A stretch of 64,000 bases of DNA, from positions 3,524 through 67,523 of the forward strand of contig JAFRAS010000007.1 of assembly GCA_017405265.1 (NCBI GenBank), in the 5' to 3' direction. The stretch comes from Candidatus Saccharimonadota bacterium. Lineage in GTDB: Bacteria; Patescibacteriota; Saccharimonadia; Saccharimonadales; Saccharimonadaceae. Of this stretch, positions 9,085 through 62,277 are shown one piece after another. Each line of letters starts with the position of its first letter. The stretch's first letter is position 1. The notes under the pieces are model-generated. The model ran no database searches. It saw only the letters and a list, made by a program, of their open reading frames with translations, and was not told the origin of the DNA. The position numbers and the translations under genes were made by a program.

Positions 9085-10926
9085 ATGAATAAAGACGTTC
9101 TCTATGTAAAATCCGACGATGACATGCGTACTATCGCTGGAAAAATTCGCTCCCTCGCGAAAAAAGTCGTAGCCATCGTTCCTCCCGCCGCCTCCCCCGA
9201 ATTATTCTACTCTTCCGCCAACTTGAAAATGCTCATGCGCGTCGCCAACGCCGCCGACAAAATCGCCGTCGTCATCACCGAAGACCCCGCCATCATCCGC
9301 GCCGCCGTCTCCGCCCGCCTCCCCCTCTCCGCCTCCCTCCACTCAAAACCCTACCTCCCGACCTTAGACAACGTGGATGATCTGACTCGCGAAGAGAAAG
9401 GCCTCCCGAGACAACGCGGAGGTCACGACCGAGCATTAGCGCCGGACGCCCGTGACGACGGGCCGTCCGGACGCGTGTCGCGGGAGGCTCTTTCTCGTAG
9501 CGAGTCGGCACCAGACGCCGCTGACGCCTTCACTTCCGCCCCAGTCGCCGCCGAAGATATTTTCGAAAAACCCGAGAAAAAAATCGAAGTAAAAGAGGAA
9601 ACTTCCGAAGAGGAGCCCAACGAACCCGAAGAAGAAGATGATGAACCCGACGACGACCACCTCGAAGCCGCCGACAAAAAGGTTGACCGCGCCGAGAAAA
9701 AACTGAAAAGCGAAGACCGTCGCGAAGAAAAGAAACGTCGCAAAAAAATTATCCTGATTGCCCTCATCGCCGCCTCCATCGTCGGCCTTCTCGTCCTGCT
9801 CCTCGTCTGGGCCTTCGCCATCGCCCCCGCCGCCGACATTTCGATTACGATAAAAACCACTTCCGCGAACTTCGCCGAGAACGTCTCCTTCGTGAACGAA
9901 CTCTCTGCTGAAGACGCCGAAGCCGGGAAGTTCTACCTCGACCCTCTGACTTATTCCGAGACCAAAGAAGCCACCTTCGAAGCCACCGGAAAAAAAGACA
10001 TCGGTGACCGCGCCCGCGGCAGCCTCACTCTTTACTACACCTTCCGCGCCAACAGCGCCGGCGAATTCACCATCGGCACCACCGTCAGCATCCCCGCCGG
10101 CTCGACCTTCGCCCAGGACGGTAAAAATTACTACACCGACTCCGACGCCGAGATAAAACACGATGTCAGTATTTGCCCCGTCGATAACAACTTCCTCGCC
10201 AACGGCTGCACCCAATCCGTCACCGTCCGCATCTCCTCCGCCGACATTGGCGAAACTTACAACGCGAACGCTAACGCCGTCTGGACCTCCGGAGTCACCG
10301 GCATCACTGCGAAAAACCCCGAAGCCATCTCTGGCGGTTTCGCGAAAACCATCACCGTCCTCTCCCAGGCCGACGTTGATCGCGCCACCGCCGCCCTCAT
10401 CCCCTCCTCGAAGTCCGACATCCTTCCCCTCCTCGAGGACGGTATGAAAAAGAACTACATCTTAATCGACGATTCCTACTCTTACGAAGCTGGCGAGATC
10501 GAACTGAGTAAAACTCAAGACGAAGAAATCAAAGACGGCGAAAAAGTCACCGCAAAACGTAAATTCGACTACAAAATTAACACCCTGGACTCCTCCGCCC
10601 TCGAAAAATTCGTCATTTCCTCGGTGAAAAACCTCGGCGCCGACCAAAAAATCTACGCCGTCACTACCCCCTTCATCCAAAGATACATCGTCAGCGACTC
10701 CGGCATCACTGGCCGTCTCTCTGCCACTTATAAATACGGTCCCGAAGTCACCTCCGACCAAGTCCTCGAAATGGCCAAGGGCCAAAAAATCGGCGACCTC
10801 CGCTCCCGCCTGAAATCCGTCAACGGCGTCGATACCGTGACAATCAACCCCTCCTTCCCCTGGGTCACCGCCGTCCCGAACGATTCGAACAAAATAACCA
10901 TTAACATAGAGGTGAAAGAACAATGA
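9085..10926 (+). CDS. Bitopic membrane protein with baseplate-J-like extracellular region
   Basis: Acidic cytoplasmic linker, one TM, IPAGSTF..G..Y and ISGG motifs; contains a palindromic insert. Confidence 0.65.
   Translation: MNKDVLYVKSDDDMRTIAGKIRSLAKKVVAIVPPAASPELFYSSANLKMLMRVANAADKIAVVITEDPAIIRAAVSARLPLSASLHSKPYLPTLDNVDDLTREEKGLPRQRGGHDRALAPDARDDGPSGRVSREALSRSESAPDAADAFTSAPVAAEDIFEKPEKKIEVKEETSEEEPNEPEEEDDEPDDDHLEAADKKVDRAEKKLKSEDRREEKKRRKKIILIALIAASIVGLLVLLLVWAFAIAPAADISITIKTTSANFAENVSFVNELSAEDAEAGKFYLDPLTYSETKEATFEATGKKDIGDRARGSLTLYYTFRANSAGEFTIGTTVSIPAGSTFAQDGKNYYTDSDAEIKHDVSICPVDNNFLANGCTQSVTVRISSADIGETYNANANAVWTSGVTGITAKNPEAISGGFAKTITVLSQADVDRATAALIPSSKSDILPLLEDGMKKNYILIDDSYSYEAGEIELSKTQDEEIKDGEKVTAKRKFDYKINTLDSSALEKFVISSVKNLGADQKIYAVTTPFIQRYIVSDSGITGRLSATYKYGPEVTSDQVLEMAKGQKIGDLRSRLKSVNGVDTVTINPSFPWVTAVPNDSNKITINIEVKEQ
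9382..9508. repeat. Intragenic coding palindrome, family B
   Basis: Arms CTGACTCGC..GAGAAAGGCCTCCCGAGACA / TGTCGCGGGAGGCTCTTTCTC..GCGAGTCGG; core 61/70 identical to the gatA copy. Confidence 0.92.
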
Positions 10927-31208: not shown

Positions 31209-32303
31209 ATGAAAGTAGCAATAGTTCACGATTGGCTCACCAACATGGGTGGCGCAGAACAGGTCGTCCTGAATCTCCACCGCCTTTTTCCCGATGCGCC
31301 AATCTTCACCACCTTTTTTACTCCCGAAAATCTCCCCTCGGAGTTTAAAAATCTGAAAGTAAAAACCTCCTTTCTTCAAAAAAAGAAACCGGTAACGGAC
31401 CACAAAAAATACTTCCCCCTGATGCCTCTCGCCTTCAAAAAGTTTAACAAAGAGCTCGAAAATTATGATCTCGTGATTTCAATTTCCACCTGTTGCGCAA
31501 AATCCGTAAAGGCAAAAAACGGCGCCCATATTTGCTATTGCAACACCCCAATGCGCTACGCTTGGGACTTCCGTGAAGAATATTTGAAAGACATGAATCC
31601 CGTGAAACGCTTTCTTGCTCGTCTTTTCCTTATTTATATGCGCCACTGGGACAAAAAAACCGCAAAAAATGTCGATTTTTACATCGCCAACTCGAACGAA
31701 ATCAAGTCTCGCATCAAGCGTTGCTATGGTCGCGACTCAGTTGTCGTGAATCCGCCTGTTCGCTGCGACGTTTTTAAGCCGACCTCCGACGAGCCAGGCG
31801 ACTACTATCTCTTCGTTTCGCGCCTTGTCGAATATAAGCGCGCCGATCTCGCGATTAAGGCCTGCGAAAAACTCGAAAAAAATCTGATTGTTATCGGCGA
31901 CGGCCCCGAGCGCGAAAAACTCGAAAAGCTCGCCGCCTCCCACACCACCTTCCTCGGTCGTCTGAGTGACAAAGAAATCGAAAAATATCTCGCGCACGCG
32001 AAAGCCCTCATCTTCCCGGCCTTCGAGGACGCCGGCATCGTCCCCGTCGAGGCCATGTCCGCCGGTCGCCCCGTCATCGCCTTCGGCAAAGGCGGCGCCC
32101 TCGACACCGTAATCGACGGAAAAACCGGCGTTTTCTTCCCGCACCAAACCGTGAAATCCCTGATGAACGCCATAAAAAAGTCCGAAAAAATAAAATTCGA
32201 CCCGAAATTCATCCGAAATCACGCCAAAGCCTTTGACGAGCCCGAGTTTCGTGTTAAAATAATGAAATACGTTAAACAAAATTTACCTAATGAAAAGTTT
32301 TAA
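31209..32303 (+). CDS. GT4 glycosyltransferase
   Basis: VHDWLTNMGGAE, EDAGIVPVEAM. Confidence 0.92.
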   Translation: MKVAIVHDWLTNMGGAEQVVLNLHRLFPDAPIFTTFFTPENLPSEFKNLKVKTSFLQKKKPVTDHKKYFPLMPLAFKKFNKELENYDLVISISTCCAKSVKAKNGAHICYCNTPMRYAWDFREEYLKDMNPVKRFLARLFLIYMRHWDKKTAKNVDFYIANSNEIKSRIKRCYGRDSVVVNPPVRCDVFKPTSDEPGDYYLFVSRLVEYKRADLAIKACEKLEKNLIVIGDGPEREKLEKLAASHTTFLGRLSDKEIEKYLAHAKALIFPAFEDAGIVPVEAMSAGRPVIAFGKGGALDTVIDGKTGVFFPHQTVKSLMNAIKKSEKIKFDPKFIRNHAKAFDEPEFRVKIMKYVKQNLPNEKF

Positions 32304-34719
32304 TCTGAAACGCACTATTCTTCTGGCCTTAATTTTTGCGATTTTCTTAACTTCCTCCTTCGATGTCGCCCTGACTCTCGAACTCTTCGGCTTCACCTTC
32401 CGCCTGACCCAACTTCTGTCAATTGTTTTAATGTTAATAATTGGAATTCAAATTATTATCAAACGTCGCGTCGAAAAGCCTCTGGGTCTAAGATATCTTA
32501 TTTTCTGGATAATCCTATTATTACTCTTTACGTTTAATACAATTTTACCGAAAACGAACTTAGCTTACGACGCCTGGGCAGTTTTCAACGTTGCCCTCGT
32601 CTTCGCCTTCGTGAACCTCCCGCGCGAAAAACTCCTTTTCCACGAAGTTTTGCGTCTCTATATCTTCTCCTTCCTCGTCATGGCGCTTTTTGGCATCCTC
32701 GAATTCATCTTGGGTGCTGCCGGCACCAACTTCCCCTACATTACTCAGTGGTGGAGCGCGACCCTCCCCCGCGTGAACGGCCTCTGTTTTGAGCCGTCCT
32801 ATTTCTCGTCTTACATGCTGATCGGCTGGGCGCTGACTCGCTACCTGATTCACAAAAAATACCCCTTCGCCCGCCACCCCTATCTCATTCTTGTCGCTAT
32901 CGTCCTCTCACTCGCCCTCTCTTCTTCTCGGATGGGTCTTCTCGTGATGACTATTTTTGAACTCATCTTCGGTGTTGTCTCTGTCATCCGCACGAAAAAA
33001 CCGCTCCTCCCGCTTGCGAGTTTCGTCATAACCGTCGCCCTCGCCTTCGGTCTGCCTTACCTTAACGCACGTATCTTCACACCTTCTGGCGGCGAATCCG
33101 CCGAGGAATCTTTCTCTCGCATCATGGACGGCACTGGCATCGGCGGCACCTCCTCGCACTCCTCCGCCGAGCGTATCGACTCCCTGAAGGACACCCTCGC
33201 CGTCTTCCTCGACTCCCCGATTTTGGGTCGCGGTTTTGGCGGCACTTTCGTCGAAATTGCCAAAAAACACGACCTCGACCCCGCGAAAATCTCTCTGCAG
33301 GATGAAGCAGGCAGTATGAACATCACCGCCGAAATTCTCGCCGCCACCGGCATTTTCGGCTTTATCGCCCTTCTTTTCTATCTCGCCGCTCTCTATTCCT
33401 CTCCTCGTCGCCTTTCCGCCGCGCATAAAACCGCCAGCAATTCTCTCGCTCCTTTGAAAGGTCTCCTCTTCGCCCTCCTCATCACCCTCATCATGTTCCA
33501 ACTGAACCAGAACCCCCTCCGTCCCTACATCTGGCTACTTATTGCGATGGTTTCCTACGCTTACGCGACTTTGAATGCCACTCTCCCCCCGAAAAAACAC
33601 CCGAAAATCGCCGTTGACGCCCGAATGCTAAAAATGTCCGGCATCGGCACCTATCTTAAAAATCTCGTTAAAAATGGTTGTTACGACCTCACTCTCGGCG
33701 CCCCCGAGCCGACCGGACTAAAAAACATCCCCTATAACGCTAATATATACGGCATAAAAGAACAGCTAAAATTCCCATATCTTAAACTCTGGCGCGAAAA
33801 CCCCGCCCTCCTCCACTGCCCGCACTACAACATTCCGCTTTTCTACTCCGGAACTCTCGTCACGACCGTCCACGACCTGACCCACCTAAAATACCCCGAA
33901 TTTTTACCTAACAAATTCGGCTACCTCTACGCCCGTTTCATGCTCGGCCGCGCCGTAAAAAAATCCACTCTCGTCCTCACCGTCTCCGAGAACACGAAAA
34001 AAGATATTCTCGAGTATTACCACGTCAACCCTGACAAGATTATTGTGATTCCGAACGGCGTCTCGATAGATTTTAAGCGCTTGCGCAAGGAAGGAACTTT
34101 TGCGACAACGTGCGACGACGTGGAGCACATTAGCGACGAGCCGCGTAACGACGCGCGCGAGGAGCATGTCGCAAAAGTTTCTTCCTTGGGTAGCAAGCGC
34201 GTATTATTGTATGTCGGGAATCTGAAGCCGCACAAGAATCTCAAAAATCTCTTGAAGGCCTTCGCAAAACTCGAAAACCGCGACGATTTGACCTTGCGTC
34301 TCGTCGGCAAATCTTTCGATAATTACAACATTCTCGACAAATTGCCAAAAAAGTTAGGAATTGAGAAAAATCTCGAAATCCTGGGCGAAAAATCCTCCGA
34401 CGAACTCGTAAAAATCTATAATGAAGCCGACCTCTTCATCTTCCCGTCTCTCTACGAAGGCTTCGGCCTCCCCATTCTCGAATCTCTCCGCTGCGGCACT
34501 CCCGTCGTCTGCTCGAACACTTCCTCCCTTCCCGAAGTCGGCGCTGACCTCGTCTCCTACTTCGACCCCACCTCCCCCTCCGACATGGCGCGCGTCATCT
34601 CCGCCCACCTCGACGACAAACTCACCTTCGACTACCAAAAAGCCAAAAAACACTGCGACGCCTTCTCTTGGAAATCTTCCGTTGAGAAAACAAAATCTGC
34701 TTTTAGAGAAGCGCTTTAG
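32290..34719 (+). CDS. O-antigen ligase/polymerase-like membrane domain fused to GT4 glycosyltransferase
   Basis: About 12 TM with R.NGL.FEPS, SSR.G, PILGRGFG; then DARM..SGIGTY, PHKN, YEGFGLPILE. Confidence 0.85.
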   Translation: MKSFNLKRTILLALIFAIFLTSSFDVALTLELFGFTFRLTQLLSIVLMLIIGIQIIIKRRVEKPLGLRYLIFWIILLLLFTFNTILPKTNLAYDAWAVFNVALVFAFVNLPREKLLFHEVLRLYIFSFLVMALFGILEFILGAAGTNFPYITQWWSATLPRVNGLCFEPSYFSSYMLIGWALTRYLIHKKYPFARHPYLILVAIVLSLALSSSRMGLLVMTIFELIFGVVSVIRTKKPLLPLASFVITVALAFGLPYLNARIFTPSGGESAEESFSRIMDGTGIGGTSSHSSAERIDSLKDTLAVFLDSPILGRGFGGTFVEIAKKHDLDPAKISLQDEAGSMNITAEILAATGIFGFIALLFYLAALYSSPRRLSAAHKTASNSLAPLKGLLFALLITLIMFQLNQNPLRPYIWLLIAMVSYAYATLNATLPPKKHPKIAVDARMLKMSGIGTYLKNLVKNGCYDLTLGAPEPTGLKNIPYNANIYGIKEQLKFPYLKLWRENPALLHCPHYNIPLFYSGTLVTTVHDLTHLKYPEFLPNKFGYLYARFMLGRAVKKSTLVLTVSENTKKDILEYYHVNPDKIIVIPNGVSIDFKRLRKEGTFATTCDDVEHISDEPRNDAREEHVAKVSSLGSKRVLLYVGNLKPHKNLKNLLKAFAKLENRDDLTLRLVGKSFDNYNILDKLPKKLGIEKNLEILGEKSSDELVKIYNEADLFIFPSLYEGFGLPILESLRCGTPVVCSNTSSLPEVGADLVSYFDPTSPSDMARVISAHLDDKLTFDYQKAKKHCDAFSWKSSVEKTKSAFREAL
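34077..34200. repeat. Intragenic coding palindrome, divergent family B copy
   Basis: CAAGGAAGGAACTTTTGCGACA / TGTCGCAAAAGTTTCTTCCTTG arms; core GACAACG..CATTAGCG..CGT(A/G)ACGACG..TGTC. Confidence 0.85.
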
Positions 34720-39391: not shown

Positions 39392-40540
39392 ATGCGCATA
39401 GGAATTGACATTAACCCCCTGACCGAAACCCGCACTGGAGTCGGCAACTATCTTTACGAAATCCTACTTTGGCTAAACGAAAATGCCAAACACCACGAAT
39501 TTTTTCTCTATTCGCCCGCTTCCGATTATCTTGAGCTCCCGAAGCTCGGCAAAAATTTTCATTTAACGAAGCTTCAGTCCAAGCACCGCAACATCGCGAA
39601 TCAAACCGAGCTCCCGAAACTCTTGAAAAACGACCAAATCGAAGTTTTTTGGGGCTCCGCTTTCCATCTCCCCGCTCGCAATCGCTACACTAAAAACATC
39701 CGTTTCGTTCTCACTATTCATGACCTCTGGGCCGAATTCTCACCTCTCGCCCCGAAAAGCCTGAAACTCAACTTAATCGCCCACTTAATGCGTCGCGACG
39801 CCAAAAACGCCGACACGATTATCGCTATCTCTGAATACACCAAACGTGAAATCCGTCGTCACTACGGCATCCCAGCGAAAAAAATCCCCGTAACTTATCT
39901 CGCTCCCTCGACTTTTGACCAAAAAACTCCCACCCGCGCCGAAGAAACCAAAATCCTGAAAAAATACCACCTCGTAGACGACGACGGAAACCTAATCGAC
40001 TACCTTTTCTTCCTCTCCACTATCCAACCTCGTAAAAATCTCGACACCGCAATCAAAGCCTTTAATCTCTACAAATCCGAGCACGAAGGTTCGAATCTGA
40101 AATTCATCGTCGCCGGCAACCGTGGTTGGGGCTCGGACCAGACCTTCGAACTAATGGAAAACTCCCCCTATAAATCCGATATCATCCGCCCCGGCTACAT
40201 CACCACCGAAAAATCCGTTTTTTATCGCAACGCTCGTGCCTTCGTCTATCCCTCTCTTTGCGAAGGCTTCGGCCTCCCTGTTCTTGAGGCCTTCGCCTAT
40301 AATTGCCCCGTGATTACCGCGAAAAACTCCTCTCTCCCTGAAGTTGGCGGTGACGCCGCCTTTTACATCAACAAAGCCACCGACGAAAAATCCCTCGCTG
40401 CCCTAATCGAGACAGTCGTGAACCAGTCCGCTCTCTCTCGAGAAAAACGTATTTTGATGGGCAAAAAACAACTCTCGAAATTCTCTTGGGAAAAATGTGC
40501 TCGTGAAACTCTCGAAATTATAGAAGGGAATAAGAAATGA
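39392..40540 (+). CDS. GT4 glycosyltransferase
   Basis: TGVGNY, TIHDL, PRKN, EGFGLPVLEA. Confidence 0.92.
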   Translation: MRIGIDINPLTETRTGVGNYLYEILLWLNENAKHHEFFLYSPASDYLELPKLGKNFHLTKLQSKHRNIANQTELPKLLKNDQIEVFWGSAFHLPARNRYTKNIRFVLTIHDLWAEFSPLAPKSLKLNLIAHLMRRDAKNADTIIAISEYTKREIRRHYGIPAKKIPVTYLAPSTFDQKTPTRAEETKILKKYHLVDDDGNLIDYLFFLSTIQPRKNLDTAIKAFNLYKSEHEGSNLKFIVAGNRGWGSDQTFELMENSPYKSDIIRPGYITTEKSVFYRNARAFVYPSLCEGFGLPVLEAFAYNCPVITAKNSSLPEVGGDAAFYINKATDEKSLAALIETVVNQSALSREKRILMGKKQLSKFSWEKCARETLEIIEGNKK

Positions 40541-41616
40541 AGCTCGCTATCGACGCTCGCTTTGTCGGCAAAACCGGCATCGGCACTTATACCGCCAATC
40601 TCTTGAGGTCCGACCTCTATTCCGTCGCTCTCGGCGACCCGAAAATTTTAAAAGAATTTGGCAAAAAAGTCATCCCATTTACCGAAAAAGTCTATCATTT
40701 GGGCGAGCAAACTCATTTTCCGAAAAAGACCCTCGTCTCTGAAAAAATCGACCTGCTCCACGTCCCGCACTATAATATCCCTCTCTTTTACCGCGCCCCT
40801 CTCGCTGTCACTATTCACGACGTCACCCCAATCGCCTTTAGTCCCTATCATCGCTCAAAGCTCTATCCCTATACCATCTTTATGATAAAAGAGAGTCTGA
40901 AAAAAGCCGAAATTGTCTTCGCTCCCTCAAAATACAGCAAATCTGACCTCTTAAAATACTTCCCGAAGACGGACTCCGACAAAATTCACGTCATCTATAA
41001 CTCCGTTGACGACCGTTTCCGCCACAAATCCGCCAAAGAAGTTGCTTATTTATACCAAAAATACCCCAAAATTTCGCGCGACAAGGCCCTTCTGCTTTTT
41101 GTCGGCCTCCAGGCGGCTCACAAAAATTTGCCGATGCTTCTCGAGGCATTTAGAGCCCTCCCGCGCGACAAATATCAGCTTATCATCATCGGTGGCGGCA
41201 CTAAGGCCGAAATGGACGCCGTCGCCACCTCTGTTTCCTCCTCCGGGACTAAAAACGGCGTCGTTTTTACCGGTCATCTCACGCCGGACAAGATAATCGA
41301 CTTTTATAATCTCGTCGACCTCTTCGTCTTCCCCTCTCTGTACGAAGGCTTCGGCCTCCCCGTTCTCGAGGCTTTGAAATGTGGCACTCCTGTCGTTTCC
41401 TCGAATCTCACCTCTCTCCCCGAAGTTGGCGGGAAATTCGTCACTTATTGCGACCCGACCGACTCCTCCGACATTGCCGAAAAAATCAAAGAAACCGTGG
41501 GTAAACCCCTAAAATCAGGCCTCGACGCCTGGCTTTCCCAATTTTCCATCGAAGCCCAAGTCTCCGCCATGCAAAAAGTCTATCAAAAATACTCCAGGGA
41601 ACAACAAAATGCCTAA
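40537..41616 (+). CDS. GT4 glycosyltransferase
   Basis: DARF..TGIGTY, HKN, YEGFGLPVLEA. Confidence 0.92.
   Translation: MKLAIDARFVGKTGIGTYTANLLRSDLYSVALGDPKILKEFGKKVIPFTEKVYHLGEQTHFPKKTLVSEKIDLLHVPHYNIPLFYRAPLAVTIHDVTPIAFSPYHRSKLYPYTIFMIKESLKKAEIVFAPSKYSKSDLLKYFPKTDSDKIHVIYNSVDDRFRHKSAKEVAYLYQKYPKISRDKALLLFVGLQAAHKNLPMLLEAFRALPRDKYQLIIIGGGTKAEMDAVATSVSSSGTKNGVVFTGHLTPDKIIDFYNLVDLFVFPSLYEGFGLPVLEALKCGTPVVSSNLTSLPEVGGKFVTYCDPTDSSDIAEKIKETVGKPLKSGLDAWLSQFSIEAQVSAMQKVYQKYSREQQNA

Positions 41617-60834: not shown

Positions 60835-62273
<1,439 letters not shown>

Positions 62274-62277
<4 letters not shown>

Follow-up and report, generated by a model that had tools for sequence, protein, structure and literature searches.

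The 64-kb stretch of Saccharibacteria DNA analysed here (the window, to which coordinates refer unless a genome, contig or locus label is given) carries a 124-nt hairpin inside a gene for a glycosyltransferase of family 4 (GT4). We hold it to be quite likely that this element is a copy of a selfish, non-autonomous, genus-specific hairpin DNA repeat, called family B, which is translated in the linker between the two halves of the enzyme and in which the fold, not the peptide, is conserved. An initial annotation had described the segment as a divergent family B copy, read partly in a different frame. The genome that holds the window is labelled G000 and its contigs C; other G labels are further genomes, and L labels are individual loci or copies. 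The element is composed as follows.

34077-34200, + strand: whole hairpin element, 124 nt, family B copy of a subfamily termed B2 (match of covariance model R1 at 34074-34200, and fold)
34077-34084, + strand: 5' side of the outermost 8-bp helix, paired with 34193-34200 (fold of the extended segment)
34086-34107, + strand: 5' arm of the 22-bp closing stem, paired with 34167-34188 with one G-U pair and zero mismatches (minimum free energy, MFE, structure)
34104-34110, + strand: GACAACG
34108-34166, + strand: core, with the end of GACAACG, a degenerate hairpin-1 region, CATTAGCG and hairpin 2 (alignments and cmsearch)
34128-34135, + strand: CATTAGCG
34140-34157, + strand: hairpin 2 with loop AACG, CGCGT/AACG/ACGCG at 34142-34155
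34167-34188, + strand: 3' arm of the closing stem, starting with TGTC (MFE structure)
34167-34170, + strand: TGTC

Membership was examined with R1, a covariance model made from the six other copies of the same genome with the GT4 copy held out, and the whole window was scanned with filters off. The held-out copy scored 44.0 bits on the + strand (E 4.5e-12). On the reverse strand, where the palindrome is kept but the core is not, the score was 15.5 bits, and all other palindromes in the window scored at most 14.1 bits. A sequence-only hidden Markov model (HMM) gave the GT4 copy 15.2 bits, while 500 palindromes with the same arms and shuffled cores averaged 0.3 and peaked at 12.1, none reaching the real score. 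This strand-specific match, well above the reverse strand, the other palindromes and the shuffled cores, confirms that the GT4 segment genuinely belongs to family B, far beyond chance. A palindrome that arose by chance or evolved locally in the GT4 linker, or a module kept at the peptide level such as an inserted domain, is highly improbable as an explanation. It would account for the lack of a recognisable canonical hairpin 1 and for an R1 score far under the 110-142 bits of the other six copies, but it agrees neither with the held-out E-value, the strand specificity and the failure of shuffled cores, nor with the close relatives that the core has in other species, with a peptide that is read in another phase and modelled as disordered, or with homologues and a paralogue that lack the element.

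The segment folds as a single hairpin with an MFE of -59.9 kcal/mol (z -8.63), and none of 200 shuffles folded as well. The motifs listed by the initial annotation (GACAACG, CATTAGCG, the CG-rich hairpin and TGTC) are all present at 34077-34200. The closing stem, with 22 bp plus the outer helix of 8 bp, falls in the 20-30 bp range of the family, and hairpin 2 has the family's 4-nt (G/A)A(C/A)G loop and CCCGT/ACGGG-type stem. It reads CGCGT/AACG/ACGCG in the GT4 copy, where the 9.4-kb and 61.5-kb copies of the window have CCCGT/GACG/ACGGG, a two-sided change that keeps the pairing and recurs as the same variant in L106. Hairpin 1 (GGYY-ACG-RRCC), followed by CGAG, is not recognisable in the GT4 copy, where cmsearch leaves 13 positions unaligned; the subfamily relatives L170 and L203 likewise differ at hairpin 1. 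A likeness between CATTAGCG and CS-6, a motif found in single-strand origins of plasmids, was not retained, as the motif is not conserved across the family.

The reading frame of the element can be compared with that of two sister copies in the window.

9382-9512, + strand: sister copy in a 613-aa open reading frame (ORF, 9085-10926), canonical frame, R1 109.6 bits, fold z -6.8
61537-61665, + strand: sister copy in gatA (ORF 60835-62277), canonical frame, R1 115.1 bits

The G of GACAAC falls at codon position 3 in the GT4 copy and at position 2 in both sisters. Relative to the sisters, the reading phase is shifted by one base in the 3' arm and in the 5' part, to which CATTAGCG belongs, in agreement with the shifted phase first reported for GACAAC and CATTAGCG, and the encoded peptide is the one quoted at that time. 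Only the hairpin-2 loop is read in the phase common to all three copies (CGT-AAC-GAC in the GT4 copy, CGT-GAC-GAC in the sisters). This mixed phase arises because the spacers around hairpin 2 are shorter, by 1 nt before it and by 2 nt after it. The core is related to that of the sisters and yet is read in another phase, so the fold, not the peptide, is conserved. By itself the GT4 copy is one more copy, and its shifted phase is good evidence that it is the fold that is inherited, not the peptide. In the sister copies the 5' phase of the GT4 copy would be closed by a TGA in the loop; the same alternative 5' phase is used by other sense copies (L026, L033, L034 and L040).

A DNA search with the core only recovered copies with the same spacing in other species of the genus (G073, G099, G017, G015 and others). 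The hairpin-2 half of the GT4 copy is 88-97% identical to these, reaching 97% over 33 nt with L106 of G073, another species, and gatA inserts of the L170/L203 type in relatives resemble it in the 5' half too. R1 gives these subfamily relatives 20-39 bits, less than the GT4 copy itself. By sequence comparison, the GT4 copy is a normal member of a second subfamily, with the spacing as a subfamily trait. The spacers of -1 and -2 nt are not a frame repair made in situ, since the same spacing is found in subfamily members of other species. The word divergent, applied to the copy in the initial annotation, is not to be read in the sense of decay, the copy being a member of a distinct subfamily.

The host gene, the part of its protein that the element encodes and an uninterrupted paralogue are located as follows.

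32290-34719, + strand: host gene, Wzy_C-GT4 fusion, 809 aa (ORF and Pfam)
aa 596-637 of the host protein: part encoded by the element, between Glyco_transf_4 and Glycos_transf_1
40537-41616, + strand: paralogous GT4 without the element, used as reference for an uninterrupted linker (BLASTP 37% identity; linker 19 aa shorter)

Pfam finds Wzy_C at aa 200-362, Glyco_transf_4 at aa 499-594 (PF13439, E 2.7e-13) and Glycos_transf_1 at aa 623-777 (PF00534, E 2.1e-34) in the 809-aa protein. Both GT-B halves are thus detected, and the C-terminal half fits the EX7E-type domain profile (PF00534). The protein appears to be an O-antigen-ligase-like membrane domain fused to a GT4 glycosyltransferase. Its interdomain linker, taken from the last strand of the N-terminal half to the first strand of the C-terminal half, has 40 aa, against 20 aa in the 15 nearest homologues (51-56% identity) and in the paralogue, and YLY.KY.IP, which is conserved in the linkers of the homologues, is missing from it. 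An AlphaFold2 model of the GT4 domain, obtained with 47 aligned sequences, has the GT-B fold with a mean predicted local distance difference test (pLDDT) of 89.9 and a predicted template modelling score (pTM) of 0.87; pLDDT values below 50 are confined to domain residues 163-193, that is nt 34096-34188. The element is predicted to encode a disordered surface loop of about 31 aa that links both Rossmann halves. The Pfam boundaries, the linker excess of about 20 aa and the modelled loop all place it where the initial annotation had put it, between the two GT-B domains. The linker has gained a net 60 nt, much less than the 111-124 nt of the hairpin; this implies either the loss or overwriting of about 10 native residues or arms that are partly native. 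The peptide of either arm allows a loose match with the homologues' K-rich native linker. The host tolerates the element, and there is no sign that it makes use of it.

No orthologue of the host GT4 closer than about 51-56% identity was found in a collection of 5.8 billion proteins, where the protein forms a singleton cluster, and in a search of 60 genus genomes with the GT4 domain nothing but the paralogue of the same genome reached E <= 1e-40. The 809-aa protein is carried by 20 contigs, and the nearest relatives of the Wzy_C-GT4 fusion are metagenome proteins. The surface-polysaccharide locus (32290-34719, with its neighbours as far as 42622) seems peculiar to a strain or species, although the repeat in it is genus-specific.

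R1 matched 32 of the 36 other genomes of the genus Candidatus Nanosyncoccus, with up to 32 matches per genome, and none of 24 genomes representing other families of the order. The four genomes of the genus without a match have a completeness of 80-99%. Judging from these searches, family B appears to be a repeat confined to Candidatus Nanosyncoccus (Saccharibacteria). The relatives found through gatA are named Candidatus Nanosyncoccus or Candidatus Saccharibacteria metagenome-assembled genomes and come from the gut of sheep, goat, yak, buffalo, deer and cattle. Among 38 copies sampled from 30 genomes, some two thirds fall within long open frames, 11 in sense and 14 in antisense, and the remainder are intergenic. 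The genic copies use at least three phases in sense and all three in antisense, and in whichever of the six phases they lie the host frame stays open. No split genes were seen around the intergenic or stop-containing copies examined. In an alignment fitted to the model, 94.6% of the cells are paired, against 64% after shuffling and at most 44% with the partners slid; this alignment leans toward the model, and the margin is large. Two-sided changes occur in 37 of 41 pairs, both internal hairpins included. The proposal that conservation lies at the nucleotide or structure level is borne out by this pairing and by the many phases used across the genus. Searches of Rfam 15 (ribozymes, introns and riboswitches included) with the GT4 and canonical copies gave no match to the element, only tRNAs at the gathering score, and at permissive E-values only chance matches to microRNA and RNAI were added. 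A literature search gave no description of such elements in Saccharibacteria. In L023, a single open frame of G020, of 458 aa, contains a pair of oppositely oriented family B copies (1501-1619, - strand, and 1649-1802, + strand) with 30 nt between them.

The orientation of 58 distinct copies was compared with the GC skew of the surrounding 2.5-3 kb, the element being masked. In 49 of them the model strand coincides with the C-rich strand. Six copies of G000 follow this rule and the seventh lies at a skew switch. Contigs C2, C3 and C4 mostly have a GC skew of 0.14-0.35 (absolute, per 10 kb), with a change of sign near the end of C2 (about 70-82 kb); the GT4 copy, on the + strand of C3 with a skew of -0.14 to -0.28, is among those that follow the rule. 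At the orthologous gatA site the rule holds for 8 of 12 copies, the copy of G000 counted. Copy orientation follows GC skew and not gene direction, as a bias and not as a law. The location of gatA on the C-rich strand in G000, when 67 of 80 relatives have it on the G-rich one, suggests an inversion.

The leading strand is usually G-rich, and by this rule the model strand would be lagging-strand sequence. Because orientation tracks skew (49/58) and not genes (11 sense, 14 antisense), a fold of single-stranded DNA is favoured, and the conserved structure is most likely single-stranded DNA and not mRNA. The strand polarity, the conservation of the folded core with covariation and the lack of an identified transposase would also suit DNA signals that serve the host on one replication strand (in priming, processing or recombination) and are kept by selection at the level of the cell. 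We find such a role quite unlikely, as copy number varies from 0 to at least 32 within the genus, with no match in four genomes that are 80-99% complete, as positions are not conserved except at tolerance hotspots such as the gatA loop, and as many copies interrupt coding sequence, where intergenic placement would cost less.

The genome G000 (519 kb, 8 contigs) holds seven family B copies. Besides the three in the window, one is antisense in recG, one is antisense in the Mur ligase gene murE, one lies between dnaK and ackA next to a tRNA gene, and one is found at a contig end. Three copies, that of the Mur ligase gene among them, are nearly identical, with arms and core in common; they are situated at the edge of the window or beyond it.

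G000 C2:74815-74946: near-identical copy
G000 C2:31254-31384: near-identical copy
G000 C3:22-151: near-identical copy

The gatA gene of the window is about 30 aa longer at its loop than 82 orthologues with an empty site. In gatA (+30 aa for a hairpin of 112 nt) and in recG (+31 aa for 117 nt) the gain is one arm short of the hairpin, and both copies fit a core plus one arm.

The arms of other genomes behave differently from the core. In G021 and G015, copies with cores about 95% identical within a genome have unrelated outer arms, each pair of which is nearly perfectly self-complementary, and the part of the stem common to such copies is the innermost 7-12 bp only. The idea that arms have merely diverged with compensatory changes is rejected for most copies, since cores of about 95% identity carry unrelated arms; it is retained for the copies of G000, whose arms are still alike. 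An instructive site is the gatA loop TTLPDYY-RIG, equivalent to 61540-61660 of the window and compared here in the orthologues L163-L242 and L069-L098. This loop is an insertion hotspot, with an insert of 20-60 aa in 28 of 110 orthologues of the genus. The inserts belong to several hairpin subfamilies in both orientations, and some are double or nested (L214, L191 and L073). Empty sites have 8-16 codons and are not palindromic, so that insertion into pre-existing palindromes is rejected at gatA. When the filled sites L203 and L170 are compared with the empty site L208, the filled allele is seen to retain the entire native loop on the upstream side of the core, with 12 of 13 codons colinear, and to repeat this loop in inverted form 3' of the core; the 30 aa gained on balance correspond to the core and one arm. 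A second hairpin family, with another core (peptide ..GHAQGRSAKP..), is found in the same gatA loop in L183, L186, L092, L191 and L215. Here, comparison of L183 with the empty orthologue L200 shows a 23-nt arm exactly reverse-complementary to native sequence that was kept on the opposite side. One arm at gatA in these relatives is derived from the target. An insert made of the core and the inverted adjacent native sequence points to fold-back or template-switch synthesis, or to an enzyme with an equivalent result.

From these observations the following course of events may be proposed. The repeat would consist of a folded core of about 60-70 nt, in which two small hairpins branch from a junction, and of a closing stem of 20-30 bp. 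It would spread at the DNA level, coupled to the replication fork, with the folded core serving its own propagation, and the closing stem would at least often be completed by inverted copying of neighbouring host sequence. The copying step may be fold-back or template-switch synthesis, or the work of a trans-acting enzyme with the same result. Only copies that are in frame, free of stops and in a tolerant loop would survive. The GT4 copy would have landed in the linker and been carried there in frame and without stops; its phase, unlike that of the sisters, would reflect entry at a different codon phase together with a subfamily that has shorter hairpin-2 spacers. A core needed for its own propagation would explain the covariation between subfamilies, and a selfish hairpin coupled to replication would explain the many phases and both orientations, the skew polarity and the loop hotspots in essential genes, as well as the absence of terminal inverted repeats and a transposase, and of a target-site duplication at the murE insertion. 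More tentatively, family B, together with one or more further hairpin families of the genus, may represent a new kind of mobile DNA without terminal repeats of its own, whose core is copied during replication, whose stem is made by fold-back copying of adjacent host DNA without a dedicated transposase, and which is able to enter essential genes in frame, with the GT4 copy as one such event in a subfamily that has frame properties of its own; we regard this wider proposal as possible, though rather doubtful.

Several points weigh against the reading of the GT4 element as a selfish, replication-coupled hairpin repeat. First, exceptions to the skew rule amount to 9 of 58 copies overall and 4 of 12 at gatA, and GC skew is a proxy for replication direction. 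Furthermore, the net gain in the GT4 linker is about two arm lengths below the hairpin, a shortfall that requires about 10 native residues to have been deleted or overwritten as well; no empty-site allele of the host GT4 gene was found in the collections searched, and therefore the insertion boundaries and the native arm cannot be fixed at this locus. The murE copy of G000 is a clean insertion of 120 nt with arms common to two other copies and with no direct target duplication visible on its flanks, and arms shared in this way imply that whole hairpins can also be copied. Translation through a hairpin of -60 kcal/mol is something that we infer only from the open frame and from hosts that are single-copy and essential (gatA, murE and recG). 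Finally, the model strand shows an excess of G-T among the arm mismatches (86 against 50, p = 0.003) and is the better-folding of the two strands in 50 of 58 copies; constraint at the RNA level could be an alternative cause of both.

This last asymmetry is what would be expected of a functional RNA within the mRNA, either a hairpin with a part in regulation or processing (a site for RNase III or a translational pause) or an intervening sequence removed before translation, where the transition mismatches would be G-U pairs. Such an RNA would also agree with the very stable folds and strong z-scores and with the compensatory changes in all helices. We consider it unlikely, because antisense genic copies are as frequent as sense copies and about one third of the copies are intergenic, because orientation follows GC skew and not transcription, and because host frames are kept open and the mixed phase of the subfamily avoids the stop in the loop, which would be needless if the RNA were excised. 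In addition, no match was found in Rfam, ribozymes and introns included, and the stop-containing copies examined are not flanked by split genes.

Enzymes that might move a selfish DNA hairpin of this kind were sought in the genus. Y1_Tnp (PF01797), the transposase of IS200 and RAYT type (RAYT, REP-associated tyrosine transposase; REP, repetitive extragenic palindrome), was detected by Pfam in no more than 2 of 41 genomes, G000 not being one of them. Reverse transcriptases with the RVT_1 domain, of 370-450 aa, are present in 31 of the 41 genomes. Their presence does not follow copy number (G010 has 32 copies and no reverse transcriptase, G032 no copies and one reverse transcriptase), and they were rejected as mobilisers. 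Neither the Y1 transposase nor a reverse transcriptase explains family B. G000 has two RVT_1 genes, in ORFs of about 447 aa.

G000 C8:2158-2790, - strand: RVT_1 gene
G000 C8:15140-15664, + strand: RVT_1 gene

Among known systems, the closest analogue of family B would be the Rickettsia palindromic elements RPE-1 to RPE-10 (Ogata et al. 2000/2002, as summarised in PMC10969869), to which it is likened by description and not by sequence, and which belong to a different phylum. In both cases the small genome of a host-dependent bacterium carries palindromes of roughly 100-150 bp, many of which lie in frame in unrelated housekeeping genes at structurally tolerant positions and are read through as an extra peptide. 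RPE have a conserved peptide per family in one frame, whereas family B uses up to six phases and both orientations; its arms are mostly locus-specific, with one copied from the target in the resolved cases, and its polarity follows GC skew. [quoted passage not shown] MITEs have common terminal inverted repeats, direct duplications of the target site and a cognate transposase, whereas in family B the centre is shared and the termini differ, the clean murE insertion shows no direct duplication and no partner transposase was found. A classical MITE is ruled out, as the termini are not shared between copies with nearly identical cores.

REPs and bacterial interspersed mosaic elements (BIMEs) with their RAYT, and IS200/IS605, resemble family B in having hairpin repeats, insertion or orientation tied to the replication strand, and single-stranded DNA. 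Transposition of REP/BIME and IS200/IS605 depends on a Y1 HUH transposase, and REPs are extragenic and of about 35 nt. A derivative of REP/RAYT or of IS200/IS605 is ruled out, with Y1_Tnp in 2 of 41 genomes against the repeat in 32 of 36. Quasipalindrome template-switch mutagenesis (Ripley-type) also involves an inverted copy of a neighbour and the perfection of stems at replication, which matches the target-derived arm of family B and its nearly perfect arms around a more divergent core. Template switching at quasipalindromes is a source of point mutations and short patches. It is not known to import a conserved core of 60-70 nt into new loci. The GT4 copy is a real and informative member of an RPE-like repeat family that is apparently undescribed.

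Within the window, the GT4 copy gives the clearest evidence that a nucleic-acid fold is the conserved unit. Saccharibacteria have some of the smallest genomes among free-replicating cells, and this genus tolerates dozens of hairpins of 110-130 nt inside genes such as gatA, murE, recG and GT4. Annotators should expect low-complexity insertions of about 30-40 aa, rich in Arg, Ala, Gly, Pro and Ser, in Nanosyncoccus proteins, and should take them neither for domain features nor for assembly errors. If the arms are indeed made from target DNA on insertion, family B would be a case of transposase-independent, replication-coupled spread of structured DNA, and it would provide a route for adding disordered loops to proteins.

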